Shown here piece after piece: positions 2,988 to 61,824 of a stretch of DNA of 64,000 nucleotides (its first letter is position 1; every line of letters begins with the position of its first letter). Origin of the DNA: an uncultured Gemmatimonadales bacterium (lineage in GTDB: Bacteria; Gemmatimonadota; Gemmatimonadetes; Gemmatimonadales; Gemmatimonadaceae). Under the pieces are notes generated by a model, which ran no database searches, was not told where the DNA came from, and worked only from the letters and a program-made list of their open reading frames with translations. The position numbers were made by a program, and so were the translations under genes. The stretch lies in assembly GCA_963793305.1 (NCBI GenBank), contig CAWBZV010000002.1:832001-896000 (forward strand). The letters run 5' to 3'.

Positions 2988-2988
2988 C

Positions 2989-4467: not shown

Positions 4468-4526
4468 GAAACCCCCTGTCAGTTATGCGTAGCGCTGCGT
4501 TCTCTAGCGGAGCACTAGGTTCGGCG

Positions 4527-4559
4527 TAGAAAGGCCGCGCCACCAGCAGTGGCGCGGCC
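4527..4559 (-). terminator. Putative intrinsic terminator after DUF2723 gene
   Basis: GGCCGCGCCAC-N5-GTGGCGCGGCC perfect stem followed by TTTCT on minus strand. Confidence 0.55.
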
Positions 4560-4587
4560 CGTTACAAAACTGAAACGCCGATCTGAC

Positions 4588-6970: not shown

Positions 6971-6992
6971 AGCCCAATAATTTGACACTCGG

Positions 6993-8526
6993 CTAGTGCC
7001 TGAACAACCGTCGCCCGGTCAGGATCATGGCGATCCCGTGCTCGTCGGCCGCCGCAATGACCTCGGCGTCCCGGACAGAGCCCCCGGGCTGGATCACGGC
7101 GCTGACGCCCGCCTGGGCTGCCTGGTCGACCCCGTCGCGGAACGGAAAGTAGGCGTCCGACCCCAACACCGCCCCGGCGGTCTCGAGGCCTGCCGCCCGG
7201 GCTTTGTGCACCGCCAGGAACGACGCGTCGACCCGCGACATCTGCCCGGCGCCGATGCCGATCGTGGCGCCGTCGCGGGCCAGGACAATGGCGTTGCTCT
7301 TCACGCTCGCCACGGTGCGCCAGGCGAACTCGAGATCCCTCCGCTCGGCCTCCGTGGGCGAGCGCTTGGTCACGACCTTCCACTCGTCGGAGACGGCCGG
7401 AGGCGCGACGCGATCCTGGACGAGGATGCCGCCGCGCACGCGCTTGATGTCGAGGCCCTTGGCGCCCCACGCCGCGCGGCCGGCGAGGATCCGCAGATTT
7501 TTCTTGCGGCCCAGCACCTCGATCGCGCCGTCGCTGAACGCCGGCGCCACGATGCACTCGACGAACAGTGAGGCGATCGCGTTCGCGGCCTCATCGTCGA
7601 CGATCGTCGTGAAGGCGATCACCGAGCCGAACGCCGAGACTGGGTCGGTGGCGAGCGCTTTCTTGTAGGCTTGCACCGCCGTCGCGCCGGTCGCCAGCCC
7701 GCTCGGCGTCGTGTGCTTGATGATCGCGCAGCACGTCTCACCCAAGAACGGCTCGATGGCCATGAGCGCGCCATCCAAGTCGAGCAGGTTGTTGAACGAC
7801 AGCTCCTTGCCGCCGAGCTGCTGCAGAGCGGCGAGGCCAGCGCCCGCGTGTTCGACGTAGTATGCCGCGTGCTGATCCGGGTTTTCGCCGTACCGAAGCG
7901 TCTGGGCTCGCTCGAATGCCAACGTCAGTCGCTCGGGGAACGCATCGCCGCGTCTGTTCCGCAAACCATTTCGCGACCGCCGCGTCATAGGCAGATGTGT
8001 GCTCGAACACTTTCTCGGCCAACCGCCTCCGCAGCGCGCCGTCCACTTGGTTGGCGCGAAGCGCGGCCAGGATGGCTCGATAGTCACCGGGGTCGACCAC
8101 GGGCAACACGTGCGCGAAATTCTTGGCGGCCGAGCGGAGCAGGGCAGGGCCACCGATGTCGATGCGCTCGATGACCTCATCGGGCGAGATCCCGGCCGTC
8201 GCTGCCGCGGCGGCGAATGCGTAGAGATTCACGACCACGAGATCGATCAGTCGAAACCCGGCGCGTGATACCTGTTCCATATGAGCGGGATCGTCCCGGC
8301 GCGCGAGAATGCCGCCATGGATCGCGGGATGCAGCGTCTTCACGCGACCATCGAGCATTTCCGCCAAGCCAGTCTCCTGGCTTACTTCGCGAACCGTGAG
8401 GCCGGCATCGCGCAGGAGCGAGGCCGTACCACCGGTGGAGATCAATTCCCATCCGAGATCGGCCAACCCGCGGGCGAAGTCGACGAGTCCGGTTTTGTCA
8501 GTGACCGACAGGAGCGCAATCGGCAT
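6993..8526 (-). CDS. purH: Bifunctional AICAR transformylase/IMP cyclohydrolase, 1-nt frameshift near 7953
   Basis: [24 protein letters not shown] in ORF 7738-8550; [36 protein letters not shown] in ORF 6993-8180. Confidence 0.95.
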
Positions 8527-8527
8527 G

Positions 8528-10552
8528 TTACTTGGCCGGTGCGACGGCAACCGCCGCGATCAAGAGTCCCAGTGCGTGCAGATCCGACAGGTCGATGACC
8601 TCGGCCGGCGAGTGGCTGTACCGGAGCGGCCATGCCAGCGGTACGTCGATCGCGCCGTAGCGCACGAACTCGGAGCCGTCGTTCCCACCGTTCGTTGTCC
8701 CGATCTGCAACGGGATGTGCGAAGCCTCGGCGATCCGCCGCACACGCTCGACCTCGGCCGCCGGGGTGACGCTGGAGTTGTCGTGCGCGCGTTCGACGGC
8801 GCCCGCGCCTATCGGTGCGTAGGCGAAGCGCTGCGACTCGAGTGGGGAGTCTGATGACACGAACGTGTCGACCGCGTGAACCCGTTTGACGCTCGTGCCG
8901 AACTCCGCCGCCAATGCCGCCGCACCATTGAGTCCGACCTCTTCTCGGGTGGAGAACGCAAAGATGACCGTGTGATCCAGCTTCGTCGGATCGATTTGCT
9001 GCATGGCGAGCAGGAGCGAGGTCACACCTGTCCGGTCATCCAGCGCTCGCACGGTGTAGCGCGTCGGCCCGAGGCGGGTCGGGTGCTTGGTTGATGTCAC
9101 ACCCTGCCCGACGTGCACACCACACGCCACCAGCGCCGCGGAGTCGACGCCAAACCAGGCCGAGAGCGTGTCGGGCTGCTTCACGGTCGCCTTGTCTCGC
9201 GGGATAAAGACGCCGCGCATGGGCGTGTCGCACTTCGTCACTTCATGCAGAAGCGCGCGCTGGCCTTCCCACAAGGACGGGTAAAATCCGCCCAGTGGTT
9301 TGAGCACCACGCGGCCGTCGTGCTCGATGCGGACGATGTCGAATCCGAGCTCGTCGAGATGCGCGACGAAGACGACGGTGTCCTTTGGAGGGCCAGCGAC
9401 GACGAACAGGTTGCCGGCGGTATCGACAGCGGGGCCGAGTACGTTCCAGGCGCGCGGAATCAGGCCACGAACGGTGCGGCGGACGTCGGCTTCATGACCG
9501 GACGGCCCGTAGACGGTGCTGACCTGCGTCAGAAGATCGGCGACAGGAGTGAGGCTGTCAGCGGTCGCGGGAGCAGCCGGTGGCACCGTCGGCACCCCGT
9601 GCAGCGCCGCGGGGGCCGCCGACGCGACACCGGCAGACTGCGCCACGGCGCCCGCGAGCGAGGTGATGTCGCTCGCTCGTAAGGACTCGACGAGCGTGCC
9701 GGGATAACGCGCGCGGACGCCGATAGCGATCGTAGTGCCGACGCGAGGCGTGGCCGGTGCGTCGGCGCGCATCACAGCAAACGTCGTGTCGGCCGGCGTG
9801 AGTCCTGGCTCGACGAGGACGAGCGTGTCGACTCGGCCCAACCGGGCGAGCACGGACTGGAGGCCGGTTCTGGCATAACTGTGCTGGACGGCCAGCACGA
9901 AGATGGTCTCGCCACCCCGGGTGGGCTTTGCGCTCGCAGCGCCGGCGACGACCGCGCAGCTCGCCCGCGCGGCGGCCTCGGGTCCTGCGACGTACTCACC
10001 GTACCGCCAAGGTGCCCACTGCTTCGCGACCGGGTCGAGGATCACGATCCCCATCTGCGCGACCTCGGCGCGCGACCGTGCGCCGACGTCGAGCCAGAGG
10101 TCATCGATGGTGACCGGCGCTTCCGGCGTGCTCCGACGGCGCCAGAGGTGTGTGCTCTTGACCGCGATCACGCCCGGGAGCGCGCCGTTCTTGGTCAGCA
10201 CGCGGACGCGCTGGCCCTCGTGGAACTGGTCCCACAATGGCGAGTGGCGAGACCGCTCGGGTGCCGCCAGTCGCAGATAGCCCGCATCCGTGATCTCGGA
10301 GACGATGTAGCCGCCATCGTCCAGCCCGCAGGCGACGACACGGCGAGGCGAGCCGCTACCCACGCGCTTGACCAGGTTGCCGAGCGCGTCGGTCGTCCAG
10401 CCTGGGAGGCTGGCCGAGATGATCTGCGTCGCGCTGCCTTCCTGGCCTGGCGGCGCATCGAGCGCGATCCAATCAGAGATCGTCTCCGTCACCTGAGCCG
10501 TCGCGGATGTCGCGACGACGCACAAGGCGGCCAGCGCGGCTAGTGTGCGAAT
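8528..10552 (-). CDS. Secreted two-domain M42/M28-type metallopeptidase (degenerate N-domain + catalytic C-domain)
   Basis: Signal peptide RTLAALAALCVVATSATA; domain 1 has CGLDD in place of HxD; domain 2 has AHLDE, ALDDRTG, STREEVG, YSHSP; start placed at an ATT with GGGAG 8 nt upstream. Confidence 0.85.
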   Translation of the reverse strand: MRTLAALAALCVVATSATAQVTETISDWIALDAPPGQEGSATQIISASLPGWTTDALGNLVKRVGSGSPRRVVACGLDDGGYIVSEITDAGYLRLAAPERSRHSPLWDQFHEGQRVRVLTKNGALPGVIAVKSTHLWRRRSTPEAPVTIDDLWLDVGARSRAEVAQMGIVILDPVAKQWAPWRYGEYVAGPEAAARASCAVVAGAASAKPTRGGETIFVLAVQHSYARTGLQSVLARLGRVDTLVLVEPGLTPADTTFAVMRADAPATPRVGTTIAIGVRARYPGTLVESLRASDITSLAGAVAQSAGVASAAPAALHGVPTVPPAAPATADSLTPVADLLTQVSTVYGPSGHEADVRRTVRGLIPRAWNVLGPAVDTAGNLFVVAGPPKDTVVFVAHLDELGFDIVRIEHDGRVVLKPLGGFYPSLWEGQRALLHEVTKCDTPMRGVFIPRDKATVKQPDTLSAWFGVDSAALVACGVHVGQGVTSTKHPTRLGPTRYTVRALDDRTGVTSLLLAMQQIDPTKLDHTVIFAFSTREEVGLNGAAALAAEFGTSVKRVHAVDTFVSSDSPLESQRFAYAPIGAGAVERAHDNSSVTPAAEVERVRRIAEASHIPLQIGTTNGGNDGSEFVRYGAIDVPLAWPLRYSHSPAEVIDLSDLHALGLLIAAVAVAPAK

Positions 10553-11168
10553 GGGTCGTTCTCCCTCAGATGGTGAAGGTCGCCTATGACTCGTCCGTCC
10601 GCCCCAAGTGTAATGCGTCCGGCCGCGACCGCGGCGACGGAGTGGGGATAGATCTTGTGCTCGACTTCTAACGTGCGAGCCGCCAACGTCGCTGGCGTGT
10701 CGTTGGGCTGCACCCAGACTGGCGCTTGGGCGATGATCGGGCCACGGTCGTAGTCGGCGTCGACGAAATGCACGGTCGCGCCAGTGATTTTCACGCCGGC
10801 TGCCAGGACCGCCGCGTGCACGCGCTCGCCGTACATGCCCGCGCCGCCGAATGCGGGCAGAAGCGACGGATGAATATTGACTATGCGCCCGCGAAACGCG
10901 CGGGTGACGGCGTCGGGCACATGCTTGAGGTATCCCGCCAACGCGATGAGCTCGATGTGATGGCGCCGGAGCATCGCCAACATCGCCTCGGCATTGGACG
11001 GCTGCTCTATCAACCCGGTCGGGATGCCGCGAGCTCTGGCCTTCGCGAGCGCGCCGGCATCGGCTCGATTCGACGCCACAAGGGCTAAGGGCATTCTGCT
11101 CGGCGATTGCTTGCATGTTGCTGCCGCCGCCCGAAGCAAATACCGCGATGCGTGCCTGAAGCGCCATG
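10540..11168 (-). CDS. purN: Phosphoribosylglycinamide formyltransferase, 1-nt insertion near 11094; in frame with upstream gmhB-like domain
   Basis: RIAVFASGGGSNMQAI, LAGYLK, NIHPSLLPAFGG, GATVHFVD..YDRGPII motifs. Confidence 0.92.
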
Positions 11169-11668
11169 GTGGCCGCTGCGTCGAGCGTGGCTGCTTGGAC
11201 CGTCGCCCGTTCGCGGTCCTCTGCCGGTGTCTCCGCCGACGGTACGAGGATTCCGTAGCCGCCGAGTGCGTCGGCCGCGGCGATGTCCGACCACTTGTCA
11301 CCGATCAGCACGACCCGAGCACCTTCGAGTCCCAGATCGCGGATGGCCCTCTGGTAGAGTTCCAGCCCGGGCTTACGGCACTCGCACGGCCCGCCGATAT
11401 CGGGGTGATGCGGACACACGTACGTCGCATCGACTTCCACGAACGAATCGAGACGAGCACGGACCGCTTCATACTGTGCGGGCGTGATCATGCCGCGCGC
11501 GATGCCGGATTGGTTCGTGACGACGACAACCGCCAGGCCCGCTTCGCGAAGGCGGCCGATCGCGTACGCGGCGCCTTCCAGGAGCGCCACGCGATCGGGG
11601 TCGGCGAGGTAATGCTCGTCGCGAATGATCGTCCCGTCGCGATCGAGGAATACCACGGCCTTCATCAT
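11169..11668 (-). CDS. gmhB: HAD-IIIA phosphatase (GmhB/HisB-N type); no stop before purN
   Basis: FLDRDGTI, VTNQSGIARG, CPHHP....CECRKPG, IGDKWSDI motifs. Confidence 0.85.
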
Positions 11669-13014
11669 GCGAATCCGAGCGCGCGGGTCACGGTCTCGAT
11701 GAGCGCTGCATCGTCTGACTCGGGCACCGAACGGAGGTCGAGGATGCAGCGGCCGTCGGCGATGCGACCGATAACGGCGGGATCACTCGCTCGGAGTCGA
11801 CGCTCCGCCGTTTCGGCGTCACCCTTGATCGCCAGAGCCGCCGAGGGGATCCTTGCGGTCGGGAAGGCGCCGCCGCCGACGGTGGCCTCCGACTCAATGA
11901 CCTCCGCGGCGATGCGCCGCGCGGCCAGGTGCGCGCGCTCGCGAATGCGCGCGACGGGTGCGGTCAGCATCGCCAACGCGGGGATGGTGCGCACGGCGGT
12001 CGCCGGATCCCTGTACAGCGTCAGCGTTGCCTCCAGGGCGGCCAGCGTCAGCTTGTCGACGCGGAGCGCTCGGGCAAGAGGATTGCGACGGGCAGCCGCG
12101 ATAGCGGCGGCCGTGCCGAGTATGATGCCAGCCTGGGGTCCACCGAGCAGCTTGTCGCCGCTCATCATGGTCAGCGTCGCTCCGGCGCGTACCGAGTCTG
12201 ACGCCGTGGGTTCGCCGGTCAGGCCGTAGGCGTCGAGCGAGATCATGAGCCCACTGCCGAAGTCATGCAGCAGCGGCAGCTCGTGCTCCTCGGCCAGAGG
12301 CGCGAGATCAGCGAGGGTCGCTTCGCTCACGAATCCATCGATGGCGAAGTTGCTCCGGTGCACTTTGAGCAGCGCGCCGGTGTCGGGCCCGATTGCCGCG
12401 GCATAGTCGCCGCGATGCGTCCGGTTCGTGGTGCCGACTTCGACGAGCCGGGACCCGCTCTTGGCCATGATGTCCGGCACGCGGAAGCTGCCACCGATCT
12501 CAATCAGCTCGCCGCGCGAAACGATGGTCGTCTTGCCCTCGGCCAGCGTGTTGAGCGCGAGCACCAGCGCCGACGCGCAATTGTTGACGACGATCGCGTC
12601 CTCGGCGCCGGTCAGCTCCGTGAGCAGTGATACGCAGTGCGTATATCGCGATCCACGCGCACCGCGCTCGATATCATACTCGAGATTCGTATAACCAGCG
12701 GCGGTCGCGGCGATCGCGTCGATGGCGGCGCGGGCCAATGGTGCGCGACCGAGATTCGTGTGGAGGACGACGCCGGTCGCATTGAACACCGGCCGGAGCG
12801 ACGGTCGTGATCTGGCCGCGAGGGCGTCGCCGATCGCTTCCGCCCACTCGTCTTCGCCGTGCGGCGCGGCGCCCGGGTTCGTCCGTGCGCGCGCAACGGC
12901 ATCGCGAACGGCGTCGACCACCACCGCGCGTGGGGCGAGCGCCATGAGCCGGCCGACGGCCGCGCTCTCTAAGAGCGTGCTGACCGATGGCAGGTCGCGG
13001 CGAGGGTCACTCAT
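11665..13014 (-). CDS. selA: L-seryl-tRNA(Sec) selenium transferase
   Basis: NATGVVLHTNLGRAPL, SRGELIEIGGSFRVPD, EVGTTNRT, SGDKLLGGPQAG motifs. Confidence 0.96.
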   Translation of the reverse strand: MSDPRRDLPSVSTLLESAAVGRLMALAPRAVVVDAVRDAVARARTNPGAAPHGEDEWAEAIGDALAARSRPSLRPVFNATGVVLHTNLGRAPLARAAIDAIAATAAGYTNLEYDIERGARGSRYTHCVSLLTELTGAEDAIVVNNCASALVLALNTLAEGKTTIVSRGELIEIGGSFRVPDIMAKSGSRLVEVGTTNRTHRGDYAAAIGPDTGALLKVHRSNFAIDGFVSEATLADLAPLAEEHELPLLHDFGSGLMISLDAYGLTGEPTASDSVRAGATLTMMSGDKLLGGPQAGIILGTAAAIAAARRNPLARALRVDKLTLAALEATLTLYRDPATAVRTIPALAMLTAPVARIRERAHLAARRIAAEVIESEATVGGGAFPTARIPSAALAIKGDAETAERRLRASDPAVIGRIADGRCILDLRSVPESDDAALIETVTRALGFA

Positions 13015-14320
13015 GGGACTGAATCTCGCTGCGGGATGGAATCTCGCCGCGGGACTGAATCTCGCTGCGCCGGTAGGCGACCGCGAAGGCCGCGTCGGCC
13101 GTGCGTGCTATCAGCCTTGGTCGTGTCGCGTTTGGGAATGGTGAAGACCAAAAACGAAGTCCGCGGATGCCCAAGGAGATTACGCAGACCGATCGACGAT
13201 GCACGGTAGAACGCACCCGGCGTCAGCGGCAATCCGAGCGAGAGCACGGCGTCCGTGACCGGGCTCGACTTGCTCGGCTTGATCAGCCGGGCTTCGCGGG
13301 CCGAGTCGCGCCGCGACTGACGCTGGATGTTGCGGGCGCGCTGGGCAGCGGTGTCTCGTGCGCCGACGCCGCCGGCCGCGGCGCGTTTCGCCGAGTCGGC
13401 GCGCAGCAGCGAGTCGTCCCGCGCCCGGTTGCGGGTGGTGAGGACGGAGTCGTAGGTGCGGCCAGAGACGGCGGTCGTGATGGGGATCGCGGTCGAATCC
13501 TTCGCTTTCAGCGTGAAGAGCGCCGGCGTGATCGACTGGTTGACGTCGACGCCCTTATCGAATGTGAGCCGCAGCGTGACGCTGTCGACGATGCGCGTCT
13601 CGGCGATGCGCGGGCCGATCGTGTCATGGATGAAGGTCAGGAGCTCGACGTTCGCGCTATCCGTCAGCTTGACTCCGACCGAGTCCCACAGCTCGCGCTG
13701 ATCCAATCGGCGGTTGTTGTTCTGATCGATGTAGCCCCGGACCGTGTACGGTCCGCCCGGCAAGTGGGGCAGGACAAACCGGCCGTTGCTGTCGGAGACC
13801 GCGACCCAGATCGTGTTCGTGTCGGACGGGACCCATGCTTCGATCAAGGCTTTCGGCGCGATGCTGCCTTTCACCCAGTCGAAGATCACACCGCGAATGG
13901 CGGTCGGGGGGATCGTCGAGCCGGTCGAGAACGTGAGTGTCGTGTCGCGCTTGATCGAGTTGCCGCGCAGGTCGGTCATCCCCGGCAGCATCGTGATCGT
14001 GTAGACCGTGTTCGGACGGAATCCGTGGCGCGGGCTCAGCGAGATATGCGTACGGTGCCAGGCGGCGGAGACGGGCGCCTTGCGCTCGTTCGGCGAGACG
14101 AGAAAGAGCTTGTCGAGGCTCTCAACACCTGACGGCAGCTCACTCACGACTTCGTCGAACCGGAACACCGCGCGGTTGGTGGTCACGTTGACGGCGTTTG
14201 TTTCAGGGATCAGCTCGATCAGCCTCGGCGGAGCGTGACGCTCCGGGCCACCCGGCGGGAACTGCTCCGAAGCGCACGCGGCCAGGGCTGCCATCGCGAC
14301 GAGCGCGGCAGCCCATCGCG

Positions 14321-14333
<13 letters not shown>
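13011..14333 (-). CDS. Ig-like domain lipoprotein (start approximate)
   Basis: Lipobox ALAAC followed by PPGGP; beta-rich repeats; DQNNNRRLD Ca-binding-like motif. Confidence 0.75.
13015..13068. repeat. 3 x 18-bp tandem repeat encoding (Q/R)RDS(V/I)P
   Basis: gggactgaatctcgctgc / gggatggaatctcgccgc / gggactgaatctcgctgc. Confidence 0.9.
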
Positions 14334-17056
<2,723 letters not shown>

Positions 17057-37526: not shown

Positions 37527-37600
37527 GGCAGGGTAGCTCAGCTGGTTAGAGCACGGCACTCATAATGCCGGGGTCGCGGGTTCGAGTCCCGCCCCTGCTA
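37527..37600 (+). tRNA. tRNA-Met (CAT), elongator type (tRNA-Ile2 not excluded); CCA not encoded
   Basis: GGCAGGG/CCCTGCT acceptor stem, TAGCTCAG D arm, CTCATAA loop, GGTTCGAGTCC T arm. Confidence 0.93.
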
Positions 37601-37606
37601 CTTCCG

Positions 37607-46107: not shown

Positions 46108-47649
46108 TTAGTGCGGTAGACTCACAAGCCGCTCTTGGATATTCAGAAGAAATTGATGCAGATCAGTACCAGCGATATCGTCGAGAGTCATAGCTGATAC
46201 GATATCGCGATTCCTACGTTTCGGATTGCAGCCGATTTGGCGCTCCACCAATGTGTCGGGATCCAGCCTGTCGATCTGAGATTGTATCCGGGATCCCAGT
46301 ACTCGGCGCAATGCCGACATGGAGAAGTAATTCTCTAAGGCCCTTCGCTGGAGACGATGTGCGTAAATCCCTGCCTTGTTGCATTGTTCCATGAATTCAA
46401 GTCGCACTTTGTCGCTTTCCGGATCGCCATCGATGAGTGCGATGACATTGCGATTCTCGACGACAACGGTGAGGTCAAGTTGCAACATGGCGTCACCGCA
46501 GAGCGGCCACATCTTGATCAAGCACCGCTCCGGTAGTTGCATTTTGGCTAGAAAGGCCTCGAGCGCGGCCTTGTCACTTGGCCCTTCGACGAGCAGTAGG
46601 AGGTCTGCCACCAGATTGTCGGCGACCGAATACCCGAGATCGGTCAAAACTTTCGCCCTGCTCGTCTCATCGTTGACGACGATCTCGGCGTCAGAAGTGC
46701 AAAGGAAGACACGATCCACGTGCGCAATATCCAGGCACACGCTTGAGTGCGTTGTGAGAACGTATTGTTTATCAGTGCGCGAGCGGAGAAAACCGAGCAA
46801 GCGCCGCTGAAGGTCGGGATGCAAATGACTCTCTGGTTCCTCGATGCACAGCACATCGATCGAGGGGTCCAGCGCGAAATACACTATCAAGAGGAGGTCC
46901 TGCAGGCCCAAACCGCAATCGTCAGCGTTGAGCGTCACGCCACGCGGACGCGATAGGCTGTCCGGCAGCGTAAACCGCAAATGCAGGAAATTTTGCCGAT
47001 CGGGTGTAATCTCGACTGCGTGACCATCCGATAGTGCGCTAAATGCACCAACGACGTTGTTATAAAACTGCCGCTCATCGGAGTACTTATCTTGATTCAG
47101 TGAAAACGAAAGGGTATTGACGATACCGGAGCCAGCAGGATCGGGGGCAAGGCTGAAATTCAAGCTGTCGGTCGTCTTAAGTCGGCGCTTCGCTGGAAGC
47201 AGCTTAACTCTAGGCGGAGGCCCTACTAAAGACGGCCACGCGGTTCCCGCGACTGCAATCTGAAAGGGGTATTGAGTGAACAATGGGTGCCGGTTGTAAC
47301 GCTCGGCAAAACCGCTAAACAGAATCCCATCGTCAGTCGCATACCAAATGCCTTCTCGATCCGCAACGGTGGCCTCAACCATTCGATCGAATGGCTCCGT
47401 GTAGTTCGTGCTCATGCCCTGTGGCAGAGCGACTGCTTTACGTAGAGCGTCTCGCAATGCATTGAACTTAGAACCGCTAAAGGTCACGCCCCGCACGTTC
47501 TTAGTCTGGTCAGCTATGCATTCAACGATCGTGGATTTCCCACTGTTGTTGCGACCAGAAAGCACATTGATGCGGTCTAAGCTGCGGAGGACTCCTTGAT
47601 TGAGGCCCTTGTGAGGCCCAATGCGAATGTGCTCAAAATGGTTCGTCAT
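46108..47649 (-). CDS. OLD-family-like ABC ATPase + TOPRIM nuclease
   Basis: Walker A GRNNSGKS, signature CGLG, Walker B IEEPESHLHP, TTHS, TOPRIM VEGPSD and DGD, LENY. Confidence 0.85.
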   Translation of the reverse strand: MTNHFEHIRIGPHKGLNQGVLRSLDRINVLSGRNNSGKSTIVECIADQTKNVRGVTFSGSKFNALRDALRKAVALPQGMSTNYTEPFDRMVEATVADREGIWYATDDGILFSGFAERYNRHPLFTQYPFQIAVAGTAWPSLVGPPPRVKLLPAKRRLKTTDSLNFSLAPDPAGSGIVNTLSFSLNQDKYSDERQFYNNVVGAFSALSDGHAVEITPDRQNFLHLRFTLPDSLSRPRGVTLNADDCGLGLQDLLLIVYFALDPSIDVLCIEEPESHLHPDLQRRLLGFLRSRTDKQYVLTTHSSVCLDIAHVDRVFLCTSDAEIVVNDETSRAKVLTDLGYSVADNLVADLLLLVEGPSDKAALEAFLAKMQLPERCLIKMWPLCGDAMLQLDLTVVVENRNVIALIDGDPESDKVRLEFMEQCNKAGIYAHRLQRRALENYFSMSALRRVLGSRIQSQIDRLDPDTLVERQIGCNPKRRNRDIVSAMTLDDIAGTDLHQFLLNIQERLVSLPH

Positions 47650-47934
47650 TGGCGGGTGAGGGTTACCGCGGATGCGGTTCGGGTACTCGCTAGGTAAGTG
47701 GCGTGAATTCGACCGAATTCGCCAGCGTGTTTTGGTCGCCGGTAATTACCTCTCGAACTAGACACGGATCAGGCAAATTCCTGACGTTGAAAGGGCAAGA
47801 TTCTGACGTTGGTTGGCGCAGTACCAACGGGTTACCTGAGTCGCCCTATATTCGCGTCATCACACTCATGGCTCGTATTCCTGGGTAGCGCATGCTTCAG
47901 CCAGGAGTCACGCGACTGTCAAAGGGATGGGCTA

Positions 47935-48516
47935 ATGGTACCTCGCAAGGGCAAAGTGGAAGAGGCTCCCATCACAGGAAGAACGATCTGGGATGTGGTG
48001 TGGGCGCTCCTGGGTCAGCCGATCGTTGGCGGGGTCGCGCTCACGACTGTACTAGTCCTTCTTGTGTTAGTAGTGGCTGGCAAGATCAGTGTTTCATTGA
48101 GCGAGACGGGCCTCCGGCTGTCGCCAGTCGTACCAGCCGACGTGAACGTAGCAGGCTCTTGGGCCGCCGACGCGAAAGACGAGGAGGATGCGAATCATAC
48201 AATCGTAGCCCGCTACTCGTATGCGATCCAAGCGACACTCTCACAGAGTGGATCGGAGGTGACGTTTACAGGGCGGTATCGGATCAAGGAGGACCCCGGT
48301 GCGGCAGAGCGAACGGTTTCGGGGCACGGCACGTTGAACGGAGGCTATCTGTCGTTGCCATATGACATATCGACGCAATCGCAACCAGTAGAGACGACGC
48401 ACGGGGTCCTTTTCATTCATTTTCAGCCGTCGGGTACAAGCGCCACGGGCTACTATCTTGCGCGAAGTATGAAGGACGACGGCTTCGTGTTTGGCTCGAT
48501 GTCGCTACGACGGTGA
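47935..48516 (+). CDS. TM + beta-barrel protein (Cap15/S-2TMbeta-like)
   Basis: Hydrophobic N-terminus then NVAGSW...LSQ...Y...HG...GYY..R...GSMSLRR. Confidence 0.55.
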   Translation: MVPRKGKVEEAPITGRTIWDVVWALLGQPIVGGVALTTVLVLLVLVVAGKISVSLSETGLRLSPVVPADVNVAGSWAADAKDEEDANHTIVARYSYAIQATLSQSGSEVTFTGRYRIKEDPGAAERTVSGHGTLNGGYLSLPYDISTQSQPVETTHGVLFIHFQPSGTSATGYYLARSMKDDGFVFGSMSLRR

Positions 48517-50683: not shown

Positions 50684-51574
50684 CTACTGCTTTATACCCA
50701 GCCGGAATAAGAGAATTGCCACCAGTACGGCAGCTGCAAAGCCGAGCAGCGTCTTCACCCATTCTTCTCGAAGTGACGATTTGGTTTGCTCCCAGATCGT
50801 TGGTGCCGCGCCTTTAGTGCAGAACAGGTCGTACCCGAGCTTGTGCACAATGCCTGCGGGCGAATGAGGATCGCTGGATGAGCCAAGCCAATCCTTCTTA
50901 AGCACGGCGACGAGATCCAGAGCTTCGTGCTCGACACCATTCCGACGGGCGATATCTCGGCAGTACGAGCAGAGAAACGCCTGTAAGGCTTTGTAGCGCA
51001 CATTGACCAGCCTGTCATTAAAGTCTCCGACGCACCCTTTGGTGCCGATGTGTGACTGTCCTCCCTCATTCCGTGGAGAGATGACAAATAGGGCATCGCG
51101 GATCAGGAGGGTCAGGATGAATTCCAAGAGCGATGGTGGCGCCATATAACGCTGCCAATCACCGAGAAATATTCCCGTGACCGCTCCGATGTTCGCGAGG
51201 TAATACTGATTCGAGAGTTTCGCTAAGGACACGATGACGATATGCGGAGGCCAAGTTTCTGAAAGGTCGTACTGAGCGTTGATTTCATCGCGGGCTTTTC
51301 TCAGACGCAGCACGAGGCCGACCATGTCTTGTTCACATGATGACCACTCAATGCGGGCGTTGGGCTTGAGTCGAGCGACGAGGGGATCGTTCGTGGCATC
51401 AAGAAGTTCGAACTCCACATGAGGCTGGAGCGTATTGAGATGCAGAATCAGATATTCAAGCGCAGCCACGCGCAGGCGTCCCAAATCAGCGAGCACCACT
51501 CCGATGCGGGCAGGTGTGCGCATGCCGGAGGAGGCGTGAGGATCCCGAGGAATATCGTACTGCACCGTGGTCAT
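50684..51574 (-). CDS. Hypothetical cargo protein with Cys/His cluster and C-terminal TM
   Basis: SHIGTKGCVGDF...LCSYC; AT-richer codons than host genes. Confidence 0.7.
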   Translation of the reverse strand: MTTVQYDIPRDPHASSGMRTPARIGVVLADLGRLRVAALEYLILHLNTLQPHVEFELLDATNDPLVARLKPNARIEWSSCEQDMVGLVLRLRKARDEINAQYDLSETWPPHIVIVSLAKLSNQYYLANIGAVTGIFLGDWQRYMAPPSLLEFILTLLIRDALFVISPRNEGGQSHIGTKGCVGDFNDRLVNVRYKALQAFLCSYCRDIARRNGVEHEALDLVAVLKKDWLGSSSDPHSPAGIVHKLGYDLFCTKGAAPTIWEQTKSSLREEWVKTLLGFAAAVLVAILLFRLGIKQ

Positions 51575-53722: not shown

Positions 53723-54755
53723 GTGATTTTGTTGACTATCACAATCCCGTACGAGCGCGTTGTCGCTGAGTTCTACGCGGCCAAGCCGCCGCACATTTTA
53801 CTCGGCAACGGTTTTAGCCGTGCTTGTCGCGATGATATTTTCGACTACGGTGCGCTGTTTGATCGGGCGGACTTCTCGAGCCTCTCACCAAGCGCGAGAA
53901 GTTCCTTCGATGCACTTACGACGACTGATTTTGAAGTAGTGATGCGAGCACTGCGAAATGCTTCGGCACTAGTACGTCTGTACTCACGAGAGTCCACAAC
54001 TCTGATCTCGCAGCTCGAGGAGGACGCGAACGGACTTCGGGAGGTCTTGGTCAAGGCCATTGCCGAGAGTCATCCGGAGCAGCCAGCTGAGGTTGCTGAC
54101 GAGGCGTACTCAGCTTGTCGCCGGTTTCTAGTGCCCTTTAAGCACATTCTATACTCTGAATTATGACTTGTTGCTTTACTGGGCGTTGATGCACAACGAC
54201 GTTGACCCTGCAATCAAGTTTGACGATGGATTCCGGACTCCAACTGGCGGGCCGCAGGAGTACGTCACTTGGGACATTGAGAACACAAATCGGCAGACGC
54301 TCTTCTACCTCCATGGCGCGCTGCATCTCTTCGACGGCGGGGATGAGTTGCAGAAGTACACCTGGATCAACACCGGAGTGCGGTTGATAGAACAGGTCCG
54401 TCGTGCGCTAGCAGCGAACCTATACCCTTTGTTCGTGGCGGAAGGAGAGAGCGCCCAAAAAATGGATCGTATCAGACACAGCGATTTCTTGTCTCGCAGT
54501 CTACGAAGTTTCGCTAACATCTCAGGCACGCTCGTAGTATACGGCCACTCGTTCGCGCCCAACGACGAGCACGTCATAAGGCTGATCGAAAGGGGTAAGG
54601 TGGCGACGATACTCGTCAGTCTGTACGGCGACCCCGACTCATCGGACAATAGGGCCATTGTCGCGCGAGTGAATCGCATGCAAGCTGCCAGACATCGAAG
54701 TCGGCCGCTTGAAACCGTCTTTTTTGATGCCGCCACGGCCAAAGTGTGGGGATAG
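53723..54755 (+). CDS. DUF4917-like (SIR2-fold) protein, 1-nt insertion near 54147
   Basis: LLGNGFS, repaired YTLNYDLLLYW, DGF, YLHGALH, YGHS...NDEH. Confidence 0.8.
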
Positions 54756-54858: not shown

Positions 54859-55509
54859 ATGACTCTCATTGTAGCCAAGTTGGTCGGAGACGATTATCTC
54901 ATCGCCGGCGCGGACTCCCGCCTGACGAGCGGGGATGGCAATTCCAACCGTGACGGGGTTGTCAAGCTTTTCCTCGTAGGAGCGCAGCCGGATCAGTTTG
55001 CGATTACGGCTCGTGGTGACTTCGTGAGCTTCTTGCCGAGCTGGACGTCAACATCACTCAATATTGGTGGGTGGCTGGCCGAATGGACGGGGCGAATGAG
55101 AGACGACCATCGTTCAATGGATATGCAGCTCGCAGTGCTTCAATCGGAGTTGGCGGTACCGCTTGCCAATGCAGAGTCCAAACGTTGTGGCGAGTTGATC
55201 GCGCTGGGATGGGTGTCTGGCGGACTGCAGGCAAGAGTCGTGCAGGTCAGACAGCATAGCGACGGGCCACCAGAATTCGTAGTGCAACCAAGTCCAGGCT
55301 TGACCAGAGGGTGTGTGTGCAAGTGGCCTCCGACTCAAGCGATCTTATGCGAGGCGGAAGGCACGATTATCGACGTGACCACCATGCGAGGGTATATCGC
55401 GAAGCAAGCGCGATCAGATCGCACAGGCCTCATAAGCCAGGATCCACAACAAACGACGGTTGTGGAGTTGTGGCCTGGCCGTAGTGTCTTTCACGATCTG
55501 AGCCTCTGA
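54859..55509 (+). CDS. Ntn-hydrolase (proteasome-beta/HslV-like) protein
   Basis: M-T-LIVA...GADSRLT...D...KLF pattern; AAGGA RBS. Confidence 0.65.
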   Translation: MTLIVAKLVGDDYLIAGADSRLTSGDGNSNRDGVVKLFLVGAQPDQFAITARGDFVSFLPSWTSTSLNIGGWLAEWTGRMRDDHRSMDMQLAVLQSELAVPLANAESKRCGELIALGWVSGGLQARVVQVRQHSDGPPEFVVQPSPGLTRGCVCKWPPTQAILCEAEGTIIDVTTMRGYIAKQARSDRTGLISQDPQQTTVVELWPGRSVFHDLSL

Positions 55510-55619: not shown

Positions 55620-56840
55620 ACGCCTCGCCGGAAGTCGCGACACGAGGATGGTGCAGTAGGGATTTTGCAGATATGGCCGAAGCCTAGTCCTGGCCACTGG
55701 TTCGGACCCTGGCAGACGACGTTACACTTCCACACGGGGCTTACTCTTAGGGAACTCAATTTGGAGCGGCTTGCCACGGTGCCAGGTGAAGTTCTATCGC
55801 AATCGAGAATGGAAGACGCTGAATGGGATCGGGCCGTTCTTGGTGAGAGCTTTGAACTATATGAGCGGCTCATGCGTGGCGAGGTGCCCAAACGGCTCGA
55901 GGTGCCGGAGCTCTCGCCGCTTCCGCAGATCCTGCTCGCTAACGCAATCGGCAACGTTGACATGCCGATCACGAGCAATCTTCACACGATCGGTAGGGCG
56001 TCGAGCGGCGCAAACTCCATTCTGTCAACTGCCATTGGCCGGTATCGGGGCGAGGAACAACTACCCATCCCTTGGCTCACGCACGCTCCCGAGTCTTCAT
56101 GGGCGATTGTGAATGCCCTTTATTTGGCTCAACTGACAGCGCGTTTTGATGATAGTGTTTCCGTACTGCTGCACTTCGCGAATGCCACAGGTACTCTGTC
56201 GTCTCTGCAACGTCAGCAGTTGAATGGCCTTCTGTTTCATCCCCTCCAGAATGCAGATCAACATGGTCGGCATGCGGATCCGAAGCGTACATTCGCCGGC
56301 GTATCCGCGCGGATAGTTAGCGGTCCTGAGCCTGAGACGCCGAGTATCACGGAATACCTAGCAGCGTTGGACGCGACGTGGCCGGCTCGACCTCATAGTC
56401 GGCGCGAGATGCTTGAGCTAATCGTACATGACAATGGACTGGGCATCGCGGCGCATTTCTACAACGCCACGCGTAAGCCCGGAGACCCTGATTTCAACGA
56501 TCTGTCTCTTTTCGGTGAATGGCAACGGCTGAATAACGCCTTCGAAAGACATCAGACGAGTAAGCGGGTGACCTTCCGCAGAGCGACTGGAACGCTGGCG
56601 ATGCCTGGGGTAGGCCTGGCCGGATTGCTCAACGCCACGAAGCAGCTGCGGGCATTTCTTGAACTTCGAACTGGCCGGCTGCGCGCATTTCAGTGGTACC
56701 GAGCCGATGATGTGATCGCTGACCGGAACCTGCTCCGCCCGGACGGACTTCCGGCGGCAGCGCCCCGGCTTGTCGGAACCATTTTCCGCTTCTTTGTGCC
56801 GCTTTATGGTCCCAGCGATGCGGTTAGGTCCGTGGAGTGA
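55620..56840 (+). CDS. GHKL (HATPase_c) ATPase/kinase-like protein; start uncertain
   Basis: N box HPLQNADQHG, G1 HDNGLGI, G2 GVGL, G3 GTIFRF. Confidence 0.75.
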   Translation, partial: TPRRKSRHEDGAVGILQIWPKPSPGHWFGPWQTTLHFHTGLTLRELNLERLATVPGEVLSQSRMEDAEWDRAVLGESFELYERLMRGEVPKRLEVPELSPLPQILLANAIGNVDMPITSNLHTIGRASSGANSILSTAIGRYRGEEQLPIPWLTHAPESSWAIVNALYLAQLTARFDDSVSVLLHFANATGTLSSLQRQQLNGLLFHPLQNADQHGRHADPKRTFAGVSARIVSGPEPETPSITEYLAALDATWPARPHSRREMLELIVHDNGLGIAAHFYNATRKPGDPDFNDLSLFGEWQRLNNAFERHQTSKRVTFRRATGTLAMPGVGLAGLLNATKQLRAFLELRTGRLRAFQWYRADDVIADRNLLRPDGLPAAAPRLVGTIFRFFVPLYGPSDAVRSVE

Positions 56841-59046
56841 GCGCCGAGCTTCTCTACGCTCGGTTTGGGCTGCGCGAGACTCGGATCTATGCAAGTTCAT
56901 GGTCCGATCCGGCCAGGCGCGTGCTTGTATTCGACGTAAACGGAGATATTCGCACGCCCACTCTACGCGATCGACTTCTTTCCCTTGAACTCAGTAGACA
57001 GCTAGACCACGTAGTACTTCGCGGAGTTTCAGAATACCTGGAAGCGGACATACTTACTGGAGACGGTCGCCGCGAGCTGGCCGATCGTTTTGGCAGTGCG
57101 GCTGTGTCGGTCGTCGATAGAACTGATTCCCGAAAGCTTCAAGCCGTTGTACTACAGGGACCGATAGACGAGGAAACTGCGCGTTCGTTGTTGACGCTGA
57201 GTGCGCAGGCTGAGGTGGAAGCCGCACTCGCTTGGAGCAACGCGATTTGGTCCGACTCATCCCACCATTTTATTGTGCCATCCGGCCACCACGCCGACAA
57301 GTTCGTTCGGGTCGCGGCCGTGTTCGCAGAGGCAACAAATGTCCTTCGGATAGCGGACTGGGTTGAGCACAGAGCGGCGCCGCCCTGCGTATTAGTAGCC
57401 GACACATATACTTTGCTGCCGCTGTTGCAAGAGATTCAACTGCAATGGATGCGACGGGCGAGAGTAGAGCTTCCACGATTCATACTGCCGCTCTACGGAG
57501 AACCCAGCGACAGTGTACGAGATCGGCTAGCTGAGATTGTGCCGATCGCCCGCGACTCGGGCGCCCAGATCTTGGCTTTAGTCAGTGTTACGGCGACGGG
57601 TGGGTACGTTGCCGCGCTGCAAGAGGGCCTCAAATCATTTGCGGAGCAGCCAGCGCTTGATGTGTGCGCCGTGTGCGCAACCCTGGGCGAAGGGCCTTTG
57701 TCTCTCGATTCTGCCTTGTGTCGGATACCGAGCAAGAGCTTCCCTGATCGTGCCTCCTGTGAGATGTGTCAGGTCAAGCATTCCACTCCGATTCCCATCG
57801 ACCAACATCACTTCACTACTCGTCTCGGCACCCATGTTCTGACGCTTCCTAAAGCGCCAGCGTTAGAGAACGTGGCGTTAGTTATTCGCGACGCCGATCA
57901 GTACGGCGCCCTTCGAGTGCATGTGGGTCGCAGCGATCGACACGGACACCTGGCAATATTCATCGATACCGCCCAGCTCCTGAAAAGCAAAGTATTTCAA
58001 GCGATCGCCACGGTTGGCTTCTATAAGGCGTGTACGGGCTTCACGCCGGACCTTGTGCTAATGCCATCGCATGACGGCACTGAAGCCGTCCGAGATTGGA
58101 TTACCGAACATACGCGTGCACCCATTGAGGTCGTCTCTGAAGGTCGGAGTATGGGGGACCTTGACGACCGAATCCGACGTGCGCGCCGAATCTTAATTGT
58201 CGATGATGCTGTTATCTCAGGAAGGACGCTAATAGGGCTTCTTGAGCGCGTACAGCGAGCGAAGGCGGCCGCGATGGACACCGATTACCAGATTCGCGGC
58301 CTGATACTGATAGCCCGTCCCGCGTATTCGACCGTTTGGCAAGGGCTTGTCGATCGCTTTTATATCAACAAACAGTATTGCCTAACTGGTGCTTGGGAGT
58401 TGAGACTGCCAGATATTGTCTCAGGCGGTCGCAATGCCTGCCCTTGGTGCGTCGAGTTGCGGTGGTTGCGCAGTGCTCTACCCGGCTGTCCTGACAGCGC
58501 CCGTCCGTACATCGAAAGTCGGATCAGGCGCCTTGAAGACTCGAACGGACTCAATGAGCGACTCTACCTTGGCACAGAGAATGCGCCCGAATATGCCGAG
58601 GCCAACGGATGGGATCCCAGCGTGCATACGACGCCCGGATCATATCTCGGCGATCTTTCGATGTGGGTGCATTCGTCGGCGCCTCAGCGTCTCTTCAAGC
58701 CATGCGAGATGAATGGAATTCCGACGCAAGGCGTTGGTCGATGAAGAGCGCCCTTCCGTTAGCTAAAGCGCTGCAGCGTTTTACGGATCCGGTAATAGTC
58801 GCTGCACTCCTGCGGGGAGTAGCCGCAGCGGAGCTCGCGTGTGAAGAAAATGAAGCCGAGTTGCCTCACGTCCTTGAGCGAATGGCGAACAACTCACTCG
58901 AGCCCATGCTAGCCGCAGAGGTCTTGTCAGCAGAGCAGCAACGCAAGCTGCCGCGTGGAGTATCCACAGCGGCCTTTCGTGGGGCTTTGACGAAGTTTTC
59001 ACCTGAAACGTGCGCCGGCCTGGAGTATTTGCTGGGAGATAAGTGA
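56837..59046 (+). CDS. Tandem PRTase-domain protein with two CxxC motifs; 1-nt deletion near 58660
   Basis: HFIVPSGHH, degenerate loop LALVSVTATGG, CEMC, intact ILIVDDAVISGRTL, CPWC; C-terminus continues in ORF 58609-59046; GTGA overlap with GHKL gene. Confidence 0.78.
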
Positions 59047-59205: not shown

Positions 59206-59248
59206 ACTCATAATGCCGGGGTCGCGGGTTCGAGTCCCGCCCCTGCTA
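59206..59248 (+). repeat. attR: duplicate of tRNA-Met 3' half
   Basis: actcataatgccggggtcgcgggttcgagtcccgcccctgcta identical to 37558-37600. Confidence 0.97.
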
Positions 59249-59252
59249 TTTG

Positions 59253-59420: not shown

Positions 59421-59858
59421 TCACCGCTCGACCAGATGCACGTCTACCGTCAGCCCCAAAGCGTGGGCTACGCGTTCGAGTGTGCCCACTTGGAGATCCT
59501 TGCCTGGGCGCTCGAGCTTCGAGACTGATTGACGGCTGACGCCGATACGCTTGGCGAGGGCGGCCTGCGACAATCCCATCGCCTCGCGCGCCCATCGCAA
59601 CTCGATGCGCGCGGCAAGGACGGCGGGGACCCGCACGGCGAGCAGCTCGCCTGATGCGGGGGCACGAACGGATCGACGTGGCCGCGGAGGGCCTTCGTCT
59701 TCATCGACGAGCCATGCTTCGAGCCATCCGATCAAGGCGTCAGCTGCCACCGCGGCGACATCTTCGTTCGGCTCAGCGAACGTCTGACACCCGGGCGCGT
59801 CGATGAAGTCAACGAGTCGGCGCTTGCCGTCGCGCGTAACGATGGCGTGATACTGCAT
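59421..59858 (-). CDS. HicB-like antitoxin fused to Xre HTH
   Basis: VDFIDAPGCQTFA...ADALIGWL; LRWAREAMGLSQAALAKRIGVSRQSVSKLE. Confidence 0.85.
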   Translation of the reverse strand: MQYHAIVTRDGKRRLVDFIDAPGCQTFAEPNEDVAAVAADALIGWLEAWLVDEDEGPPRPRRSVRAPASGELLAVRVPAVLAARIELRWAREAMGLSQAALAKRIGVSRQSVSKLERPGKDLQVGTLERVAHALGLTVDVHLVER

Positions 59859-59951
59859 GTCCTGCTCCTGGTCCTTGGTATTCTGGAGCGCCGAGCTGGA
59901 TTGCGTTCTGCTACCACGGCACGCCCACGCCACCATCGGCCACGACCGCAT

Positions 59952-60414
59952 TCAACCCTTCTCAGCACCAGCGGCTCTCGCATAGCGCAGCGCTTGCGGG
60001 AATGTCCTCTGGTTCGAGCTCCGGGTACTCCCGCCGGATCTCGTCGACCGTCAACCCATTGGCGACGAGATTGACGATCAGCGACACCGTGACCCGAAAG
60101 CCGCGAATGCACGGGCGTCCTCCCATGACTCTGGGGTCGCACGTGATGCGCTCGAATGGCGGCGCTTGCGCGCCTGGCGCCACGATTTGAGCGGCATCAC
60201 GCTCGTCGTCATCGTCTGGATCCGATATCTGATCGGCCGGAATCCAAACGACACGATTCTCGAGCCATGACCACACGACGATCGGGCGTCCTCTTCGCTT
60301 ATGATCGCGGATCGCATCGGCAACACCTTCACGCAAGGCGCGATCGATCTCAGTACCTTCCGCGAACATTCTCGATAGGTCAACGGGTCGTCTGCCGCGA
60401 GTCGGCTGAGTCAT
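59952..60414 (-). CDS. DUF433 antitoxin-like domain with extra N-terminal module; 1-nt insertion near 60001
   Basis: RITCDPRVMGGRPCIRGFRVTV...YPELEPEDI; repaired end PQALRYA. Confidence 0.75.
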
Positions 60415-60647
60415 ATGCGGTCCCATCCAGTGCTGAAGCGCGTGGTGGCGTCGAGCGGTTACTGCTTCGAGAAAGTATCAAGCATCGCGTGGCGTCACGT
60501 CCACGTTGAGTTGTGAACGTGGCACGCTGCACCGTGAGCATCTGTGCGTAGAGCGGCGCGCTCGAGCGGCGTAAATTCTCGCCACTATCCAACCACAATC
60601 ATTCGCCAGGAGGCTGTCATGACGTAGTTCACTTATCCGGAGAACTG

Positions 60648-61034
60648 ATGGCCCATGGATCAAAACGGTGGATCATCGCCGTCGATGCCCGGCTCGCCCG
60701 CCGTCTCAAACGCTCCCGGCACCGCACGAGTAACGACCTCCTCGGCCCGCTCGTGCCATTCTCATGGCGACTAGGGCGCGACTGTCCCGAATGCGCCGGA
60801 CTATGGACCCTGTGGGACGCGTGCCGTCGCTGCCGAGAAGTGCGACGCACCGAGGCACGTCTGCGCGGTCGCACGTGGCCTGGTAGGGGAGTGCCTCACT
60901 GGTTCCGACGGCAGCTCGAGCGCCAGTACCGGGCCCGCGTGCGGCACATCCTCGCGATGGCCCGATACGACGGTGCGCGCTACGAGTTGCTACCTGGGAC
61001 ACGGCGCAAGGACGCTGCCTGGTTGTTCTGGTGA
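60648..61034 (+). CDS. Hypothetical Arg/Trp-rich protein with two CxxC
   Basis: GGAG RBS before ATG; CPEC, CRRC. Confidence 0.5.
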   Translation: MAHGSKRWIIAVDARLARRLKRSRHRTSNDLLGPLVPFSWRLGRDCPECAGLWTLWDACRRCREVRRTEARLRGRTWPGRGVPHWFRRQLERQYRARVRHILAMARYDGARYELLPGTRRKDAAWLFW

Positions 61035-61113
61035 CCCTAGCGGTGGTGCCGCACTTGGCACCGCGCCTCTGGCTCGACGCGTGGCGCTATGAGTCCTAGT
61101 GCGCGCGCTCGCT

Positions 61114-61152
61114 TATGTCAGAATTGACATATTCCCATTCACAACGTAAATT
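61114..61152 (+). promoter_or_regulatory. TA promoter with palindromic operator
   Basis: TATGTCA-GAAT-TGACATA overlapping TTGACA (61124-29), 17 nt spacer, TAAATT (61147-52). Confidence 0.7.
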
Positions 61153-61156
61153 CTCT

Positions 61157-61498
61157 ATGTTCGATCGCGATAAGCGTGTCATTTGGCTGCGTGGCGAGGT
61201 GAAGACTCCGCCGTTCTCGTCGTCGGCGCGGATCGAAGCCGGCCTCCTGTTGCGTCGGCTGCAACGCGGCGAGTCAATGTCCCTGCCGCATTCGCGGCCG
61301 ATGACGAGTATCGGTCAGCGTTGTCATGAGTTGCGTATCGTCGACGAGCAAGTAGAGTGGCGGATCGTGTACCGGATCGATTTGGACGCCATCCTTGTTC
61401 TCGAGGTGTTCGAGAAGAAGACGAGGCAGACGCCGCAGCACGTCGTCAATTCGTGCAAGCGCCGATTGCGAGTTTATGATGGGGCGGGGCGTAAGTGA
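61157..61498 (+). CDS. RelE/ParE-family (Gp49/HigB-like) toxin
   Basis: LPHSRPM..IG.RCHELRI...WRIVYRID...LEVFEKKT..TP. Confidence 0.9.
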   Translation: MFDRDKRVIWLRGEVKTPPFSSSARIEAGLLLRRLQRGESMSLPHSRPMTSIGQRCHELRIVDEQVEWRIVYRIDLDAILVLEVFEKKTRQTPQHVVNSCKRRLRVYDGAGRK

Positions 61499-61512
61499 CG
61501 CGGGAGGAATGT

Positions 61513-61824
61513 ATGGATAGGGCAAAGCAGAAGCGGCTCGAAGCGGCGGGATGGGCGGTTGGCTCCGCCGCCGAGTTCCTTGGACTGTCCGAGGAGGAGG
61601 AGGCTATTGTTGAGATGCGCCTGCGTCTCAGCGACAGCGTTCGGCTACGGCGCACGCGATTGGGACTGAGTCAGTCCACGGTTGCTAGGCGCCTCGGATC
61701 GAGTCAGTCGCGCGTAGCGAAGATGGAAGCGGCGGATCCGAGCGTATCGTTGGACTTGCTATTGCGAGCGCTCCTAGCGCTTGGAGCGACGCGTCGCGAG
61801 ATCGCGCGAGCCATCGCTGCGTAG
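61513..61824 (+). CDS. Xre-HTH antitoxin (HigA-like)
   Basis: AGWAVGSAAEFLGL, SSQSRVAKME; GGAGG RBS. Confidence 0.9.
   Translation: MDRAKQKRLEAAGWAVGSAAEFLGLSEEEEAIVEMRLRLSDSVRLRRTRLGLSQSTVARRLGSSQSRVAKMEAADPSVSLDLLLRALLALGATRREIARAIAA

Follow-up and report, generated by a model that had tools for sequence, protein, structure and literature searches.

In a 64,000-nucleotide stretch of genomic DNA from an uncultured Gemmatimonadales bacterium (here the window; GenBank assembly GCA_963793305.1, contig CAWBZV010000002.1, positions 832,001 to 896,000), we identified a pair of adjacent genes, A and B, that represents a real, widespread and mobile two-gene system. Gene A codes for a GHKL-type ATP-binding protein and gene B for a protein with two phosphoribosyltransferase (PRTase) folds, the second of which retains the acidic aspartate pair (DD) of the loop for phosphoribosyl pyrophosphate (PRPP). 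By profile comparison, the A/B pair is a remote, DD-retaining variant of PDC-M65, a candidate family in the PADLOC collection. An earlier note, made from the sequence alone, had taken the pair for an undescribed defence or nucleotide-conflict system; the pair is not uncatalogued, because both of its families match the profiles PDC-M65A and PDC-M65B. We think it likely that the pair serves defence by one mechanism or another, and we tentatively read it as an immune switch carried on mobile islands, in which A would control B, and B would bind a phosphoribosyl ligand and upset the pools of PRPP or nucleotides.

A phmmer search with B returned 462 representatives at E ≤ 0.001; the results below are among the 150 matches listed, with conservation counted over 125 rows (the phmmer set). 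A degenerate pattern for the first PRTase repeat gave 113 matches in GTDB genomes (the GTDB set), with flanking sequence for 80 loci, 67 of which are true B by profile and 13 chance matches; 24 of the other 33, short loci also match the B profile. With a profile for A iterated four times over the 1,626 open reading frames (ORFs) of the flanked loci, an A homologue was found directly upstream of B in 64 of the 67 loci and in none of the chance loci. Two of the three loci with no A match lie at contig ends and the third (L040) has a split B. The spacing between A and B is −20 to +30 nt in 54 of the 64 loci, and the distances among A proteins and among B proteins correlate (Mantel rho 0.78, 57 pairs, 0 of 999 permutations), which bears out the co-conservation that the earlier note had named as a check. 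The B loci span ten phyla, as judged from record titles and tree labels, and no third gene is conserved beside the pair; the largest cluster of neighbours spans 13 loci, and for several of the genes in it the sole match is the generic mad3 ATPase profile. A search of 400 further genomes from the window's phylum turned up no real copy, only one weak PRPP-loop match.

A DNA pattern run on metagenomes gave five loci, of which two are true A, one of them cut by a contig end, and within these two A-selected loci we found no A without B. Of 600 stretches from a protein-pattern scan of metagenomes none was confirmed, and no longer or fused A was seen among proteins of 792–2,260 aa, which is weak evidence. 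The pair has no match among INPHARED phages, the B motif has none in viral contigs, and fold matches of B in BFVD are generic PRTases only; NCBIfam holds no named system for the pair, and the ESM Atlas yielded clusters of matching size, none of them named. Gene B is present in two or three divergent copies in some genomes (L019, L040 and L057 on one chromosome; L044 and L080 on one contig).

The link to PDC-M65 comes mainly through relatives. PDC-M65A is matched by 14 of 73 A rows (best E 2e-12), those at E ≤ 0.001 including P0159 and P0160 (~55% identical), and PDC-M65B by 20 of 23 B rows (best E 2e-16), with relatives of B reaching 7e-24 over profile positions 134–730. The window's own A matches PDC-M65A at E 0.077 and its B matches PDC-M65B at E 2.9e-7 over 37 of 763 positions, and the shortness of this match makes it unlikely that PADLOC would call the window pair as PDC-M65. 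Like the window pair, PDC-M65 consists of two adjacent genes of similar sizes (profiles of 398 and 763 positions, compared with 353 and ~736 aa), whereas PDC-M65 is embedded in BREX, DISARM or type I restriction-modification (RM) loci and the window pair is not. Such embedding is how the PDCs, which are untested PADLOC predictions, were chosen, according to the available text of Payne et al. (10.1101/2024.01.29.577857). No high-scoring PDC-M65B member was found among the 301 + 401 genomes searched, no paper naming PDC-M65 in the literature searched, and no mention of it in ten DefensePredictor supplementary files (one of them in part); nor did the defence papers searched contain a pairing of GHKL and PRTase folds.

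Relatives of the pair are often found beside defence genes. We scanned the three nearest genes on each side with PADLOC (335 of ~840 called neighbours), taking as controls 91 proteins encoded in the 13 chance loci or in the host part of the window. Under a post hoc strict rule (E ≤ 1e-30 and at least half of the profile), 30 of the 335 neighbours match, as against 2 of the 91 controls (p 0.026), and the two control matches look like generic housekeeping domains. Full-length defence neighbours include BrxC (BREX), Shango, ThsB (Thoeris), HmaB, AbiL, AbiEi, Dsr1, Druantia and RM proteins. BrxC adjoins the pair in L036 and a type I restriction endonuclease in L021, and in L060 (positions 1580–15018) an HmaB methylase gene flanks the pair on each side, an AbiL-like gene adjoining it. 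Found independently of the motif scan, the megaplasmid pHG1 of C. necator H16 (L128, positions 7404–10821) carries an intact pair, H16_RS32265 and H16_RS35355, both annotated as hypothetical, next to Avs1b/c and an AbiJ_NTD3 gene. The enrichment near defence genes that the earlier note had proposed to look for thus appears at the level of proteins under the strict rule, but not under a looser one or at the level of loci; it is modest and threshold-dependent, suggestive rather than strong.

The longest frame of gene A starts at 55569, and nine relatives of 338–394 aa begin near its residue 71; the start is therefore most likely the GTG at 55779 and not position 55620, as had been supposed. An N-terminal part of ~100 aa precedes a GHKL (Bergerat) ATP-binding domain of the kinase branch that has no H-box. 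In the structure model (pLDDT 88.7) the top fold match is SpoIIAB (VIA Z 9.8, root-mean-square deviation [rmsd] 3.3, 139 of 141 residues aligned), tied within 1 Z with the CA domains of histidine kinases; the best PDB profile match is the CheA P4 domain (E 1.5e-5), and Foldseek with the model gave nothing under E 0.001. Kinase-branch GHKL proteins have a His at N+4 of the N-box, whereas the GyrB, Hsp90 and MutL ATPases have an Asp at N+3. In line with the earlier note, gene A has the N, G1 and G2 boxes, with N158, D218, G220 and G279 invariant in an alignment of 73 rows. The replacement of the N-box Glu by His that it pointed out is true of the window; it is specific to a clade, most relatives keeping Glu (46 of 73, with Gln in 14 and His in 12), and as a mark of an odd or dead enzyme it carries little weight, since the CheA P4 N-box has His at the same position (154) and the change is therefore not a defect.

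No HisKA or receiver family matches gene A, and the only families with matches in the 73 rows are HATPase_c families, in agreement with the earlier observation that A has no recognisable HisKA or receiver partner; with neither HisKA or H-box nor a receiver partner, the pair falls outside the two-component systems. Because no His other than H162 is conserved in the A family, any phosphotransfer would have to occur in trans. The ATP site of gene A is of the kinase type and intact, and the protein lacks any conserved His that it could phosphorylate on itself. SpoIIAB, RsbW and CheA P4 are alike in this respect, being GHKL domains with no H-box of their own and with a His four residues past the N-box Asn; unlike them, A has no STAS protein, sigma factor, HPt or receiver conserved beside it, and its constant partner is the tandem PRTase. 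The N-terminus of A is weakly STAS-like outside the window's clade (hhalign E 0.055; one row E 0.002), but not within it.

Gene B begins within gene A, the TGA of A (56838–56840) and the GTG of B (56837) forming the 4-nt GTGA overlap (56837–56840) from which translational coupling had been proposed. Its first frame stops at 58744. The closest relative, P0004 (744 aa, 56% identical), matches this frame to residue 608 and then the second frame to 59046, and relatives of 700–830 aa match both frames, joining near 58657–58661, where one base is missing; the earlier estimate of ~735 aa after repair of one indel holds to within a residue or so (~736 aa). An intact close pair is present in metagenome contig L132 (356 and 743 aa, 58% and 47% identical, same overlap). 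Frame-split receiver domains in the assembly (7 of 106) correspond to ~2e-4 indels per base, a rate at which a gene as long as B would carry an error with a probability of 36%, and the ~4 probable frameshifts in the surrounding island (B, DUF4917, RadC and, probably, DUF4209) amount to the same rate. Given the assembly-wide rate, the matching rate in the island and the intact L132 pair, the frameshift is quite probably an assembly error; B is also split in 4 of the 67 related loci.

The model of B (pLDDT 89, the last 27 residues being off-frame) has an N-terminal alpha/beta domain followed by two PRTase folds. The N-terminal domain has no informative PDB sequence match; neither REC nor STAS is supported for it, nor REC for repeat 1 (hhalign probabilities under 1%). 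The two repeats align with each other (hhalign E 8e-6), H144 falling on H362 and H152 on H371, and both match PRTase folds with the hood and PRPP loop of type I enzymes, in line with the duplicated unit of PRTase and CxxC seen by the earlier note. The fold matches lie near orotate, adenine and hypoxanthine phosphoribosyltransferases (OPRTase, APRT and HPRT), and the regulatory PRTase folds PurR and PyrR are among the structural and profile matches. Each repeat pairs two hood His with a CxxC (H144/H152/C308/C311 and H362/H371/C535/C538), and there is probably one His2Cys2 zinc site per repeat, judging from the conservation of these motifs: in the phmmer set C308 and C311 are each kept in 123 of 125 rows, and, for repeat 2, 115 rows retain both the His pair and the CxxC, 7 have neither and 3 are discordant. 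For the GTDB set the corresponding counts are 30/0/0/28, with no discordant rows, which is not independent evidence because the losses are one clade.

The PRPP-loop aspartates divide the repeats: D456 and D457 are in place in repeat 2, and both are absent from repeat 1. Repeat 1 is nevertheless strongly conserved in the phmmer set (H144, H152 and W175 in 125/125, D189 in 124, Y220 in 112, S250 in 115 and G255 in 121) and keeps its phosphate loop, S250–G255, despite the loss of the aspartates; we rely on this set, as H144, P148, H152, W175 and D189 were part of the pattern used to find the GTDB set, and their invariance there is circular. Repeat 2 has DD, DE or ED in 113/125 phmmer rows, at ~25% identity, compared with 24/58 rows of the GTDB set, and lacks it in the other 12 and 34, respectively. 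A tree of the N-terminal half of B (FastTree, midpoint root) places a single loss of the repeat-2 motifs (DD, His pair and CxxC) in a deep clade of 34 rows, and losses of DD alone in a Pseudomonas/Rheinheimera clade and again inside the window's own branch. In the clades with losses, the ATP site of A, repeat 1 and the repeat-2 [TS]G are all still present, and no clade has lost either phosphate-binding loop or the first His2Cys2 motif. It follows that DD is under selection in most lineages, the window's included. The split into a pseudo and an active PRTase fits the motifs of the window, with no aspartates in repeat 1 and an intact DD in repeat 2, but is weakened by the wider family, in which repeat 1 carries the residues that are never given up and the DD of repeat 2 is missing from many rows.

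An island of 21.7 kb, bounded by tRNA-Met and a copy of its 3′ end (Table 1), has the pair at its right end and also carries a tyrosine integrase, RadC, VirD4, a relaxase, NikA, an ABC ATPase-TOPRIM protein and DUF4917/PDC-S21. These boundaries and mobility genes support the view of the pair as cargo of a mobile element, and its GC content at third codon positions (0.57–0.59, compared with 0.80–0.86 in five host genes) agrees with the less biased codon usage noticed earlier. A scan for promoters and terminators gave signal at chance level.

Table 1. Coordinates of the A/B gene pair, its motifs and domains, and the ends of the island
Feature	Position in the window	Strand	Basis
Gene A, 353 aa	55779..56840	+	Start set from relatives
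Gene A N-box (H154...N158...H162)	56238..56267	+	N158 73/73, H162 61/73, position 154 E46/Q14/H12
Gene A G1 box (D218-G220-G222)	56430..56444	+	D218, G220 73/73; G222 72/73
Gene A G2 box (G277-G279)	56607..56615	+	G277 72/73, G279 73/73
Gene B, ~736 aa across one missing base near 58657-58661	56837..59046	+	P0004 matches both frames
Gene B N-terminal alpha/beta domain	56837..57172	+	Secondary structure
Gene B repeat 1, OPRTase-like fold	57188..57826	+	4fym Z 10.1, rmsd 4.6, 189 aligned
Gene B repeat 2, type I PRTase fold	57848..58471	+	Pfam Pribosyltran E 2e-4; VIA Z 11.9, rmsd 2.8, 130 aligned
Repeat 2 DD loop (D456, D457)	58202-58207	+	Intact
Gene B C-terminal domain, second frame	58660..59046	+	Matches C-terminus of many relatives, best E 1e-39
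tRNA-Met, island left end	37527..37601	+	ARAGORN
Copy of tRNA-Met 3' end, island right end	59206..59251 (46 nt)	+	45/46 nt identical to 37558-37603

Other genes of the island include a second defence candidate, the DUF4917/PDC-S21 gene (53723–54755, plus strand), which has a weak SIR2 match and a frameshift near 54150, and a probable defence gene (46108–47649, minus strand) coding for the single-protein ABC ATPase-TOPRIM, with OLD/GajA/AriAB-like matches. Immediately 5′ of gene A is a 216-aa ORF (54859–55509, plus strand) with no Pfam, PADLOC or NCBIfam match, the start of which resembles, by eye, an N-terminal-threonine (proteasome-beta-like) hydrolase. The gene at 47809–48516 (plus strand) codes for one or more membrane segments and then a beta-rich domain, by eye like a Cap15-type membrane effector, and has no real Pfam match; a 296-aa ORF between VirD4 and the relaxase (50684–51574, minus strand) has a C-terminal hydrophobic segment, low GC3 (third-position GC) and no family match. 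Just beyond the right end of the island (59421–61824) are toxin-antitoxin-like genes: one coding for a helix-turn-helix (HTH) protein, one for DUF433, and a Gp49-like gene that is coupled to a gene for an HTH protein. Among the related loci, L013 (1838–2773) and L034 (11628–12587) have a gene, ThyX-like by eye, that overlaps the 5′ end of gene A, and downstream of the L034 pair are a QatC-like and a KAP-NTPase-like gene.

Several described systems are working analogies for the pair, not families to which it belongs. ShosTA is also a two-gene defence module with a type I PRTase, ShosT, which binds PRPP through a DD loop and loses its toxicity when that loop is changed (D331A/D332A); unlike gene B, ShosT combines a single PRTase with a pyrophosphatase domain, and the protein it is paired with does not belong to the GHKL family (PMC11961720). 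Neither window protein matches the ShosT or ShosA profiles. The effector of Retron-Eco11 has a PRTase fold, lowers PRPP when activated, to half in the available account, and tolerates a non-canonical loop (PMC12746101). Type III retrons have a reverse transcriptase, whereas there is none among the island ORFs scanned. Ophion (radical SAM, PHP and PRTase) and DS-32 (PRTase and NADAR) are validated PRTase-containing defence systems that have other partners, with no GHKL protein or tandem repeat described in the available parts of the sources. HisKin-conflict and iREC, which appear as family names in the available text of PMC13712802, do not match the window pair. Matches to the PRTase-CE family PF24390 are confined to 3 of 58 B rows (best E 0.0013), and the window has none. 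PRTase conflict effectors were reportedly described by Nicastro et al. in 2023, and from the names HisKin-conflict and iREC, architectures related to the A/B pair may be described there too; the novelty of the pair could therefore be lower.

How would such a pair act? We propose that the target of A is B, its only constant partner, on which it would act in trans through phosphorylation or through nucleotide-dependent binding in the manner of SpoIIAB; that repeat 1 would be the indispensable ligand-binding or regulatory half; and that repeat 2 may bind Mg-PRPP in the window's lineage. Upon infection this control would change and B would disturb PRPP or nucleotide pools, leading to cell arrest as with ShosT and the Retron-Eco11 effector. 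The immune-switch reading draws on the co-occurrence in 64 of 67 loci with no shared third gene, the PDC-M65 matches, the defence neighbours, the patchy distribution in the phylum, the retention of DD in most relatives, the ShosT and Retron-Eco11 precedents, and the presence of PDC-S21/DUF4917 and the ABC ATPase-TOPRIM gene in the same island. A bolder version, which we regard as unlikely, has the H-box-less GHKL kinase use a zinc-bound pseudo-PRTase as its phospho-acceptor in place of a STAS or receiver domain. The kinase would phosphorylate a Ser or Thr of the phosphate loop in repeat 1, the modified S250 or positions 253–254 would mimic a bound nucleotide 5′-phosphate, and this would switch the fused PRTase pseudo-dimer on or off upon infection.

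Several observations weigh against the immune-switch reading. The window's own PDC-M65 matches are weak (E 0.077 for A; 37 residues only for B), and at least three lineages have the A/B pair but no longer DD, so that PRPP chemistry in repeat 2 cannot be the output family-wide; nor is any polar residue conserved in the flexible-loop region of repeat 2. The neighbourhood evidence has its own difficulties: under a loose rule (any PADLOC match at 1e-15, counted by hand) there is no enrichment (33 of 67 loci compared with 7 of 13 controls), the strict rule was set after the tables were seen and gives p 0.14 against the 64 chance-locus proteins alone and p 0.33 by locus (21/67 compared with 2/13), and many of the scanned loci are related Acidimicrobiia.

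If B only bound nucleotides or phosphoribosyl ligands, as a sensor or a scaffold, the output would be the kinase or ATPase activity of A on targets in the host or the phage, an activity that B would restrain until infection. This is possible, if rather doubtful: the ATP-site residues of A are kept in all 28 loci that have lost the repeat-2 motifs and all 6 that have lost DD alone, no other recognisable catalytic set is kept throughout the family, and PurR and PyrR provide regulatory precedents among the matches of B; yet SpoIIAB-type domains usually act on a dedicated partner, DD is kept in 113/125 relatives, and A did not occur apart from B in the two A-selected loci. The same losses make a model with an inert repeat-1 scaffold, and with repeat 2 as the only effector and consumer of PRPP, improbable, for the 34-row clade has dispensed with the DD, His pair and CxxC of repeat 2, and two further lineages with DD alone, while keeping repeat 1 and A; the canonical DD loop in the window and most relatives, and the dependence of ShosT toxicity on its DD (PMC11961720), speak for that model.

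An addiction module that stabilises mobile islands, or a switch that slows growth under nucleotide stress, would suit the location of the pair on islands and a megaplasmid, the weak enrichment by locus and the many loci with no defence neighbour; we consider it unlikely, as the pair repeatedly adjoins unrelated defence systems and the related PDC family was chosen by its embedding in RM, BREX and DISARM loci, in the available text (10.1101/2024.01.29.577857). A salvage or biosynthetic PRTase with its regulator is very unlikely indeed: the fold is near OPRTase, APRT and HPRT, and the ThyX-like gene is coupled upstream in two loci (L013 and L034), but metabolic neighbours are not conserved, the distribution across 400 genomes of the phylum is patchy, and DD has been lost repeatedly.

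If the immune-switch reading or another defensive role is correct, an untested catalogue entry would become a broad family, spanning ten phyla among the loci found and barely detected by current profiles, in which a kinase-type GHKL switch is coupled to PRTase folds. The parts of this family that are always kept are the ATP site of A and the dead-looking repeat 1, rather than the canonical DD loop, and the probable His2Cys2 sites, together with the recognition that the conserved half of B is its 'dead' repeat, would be useful additions to its description.

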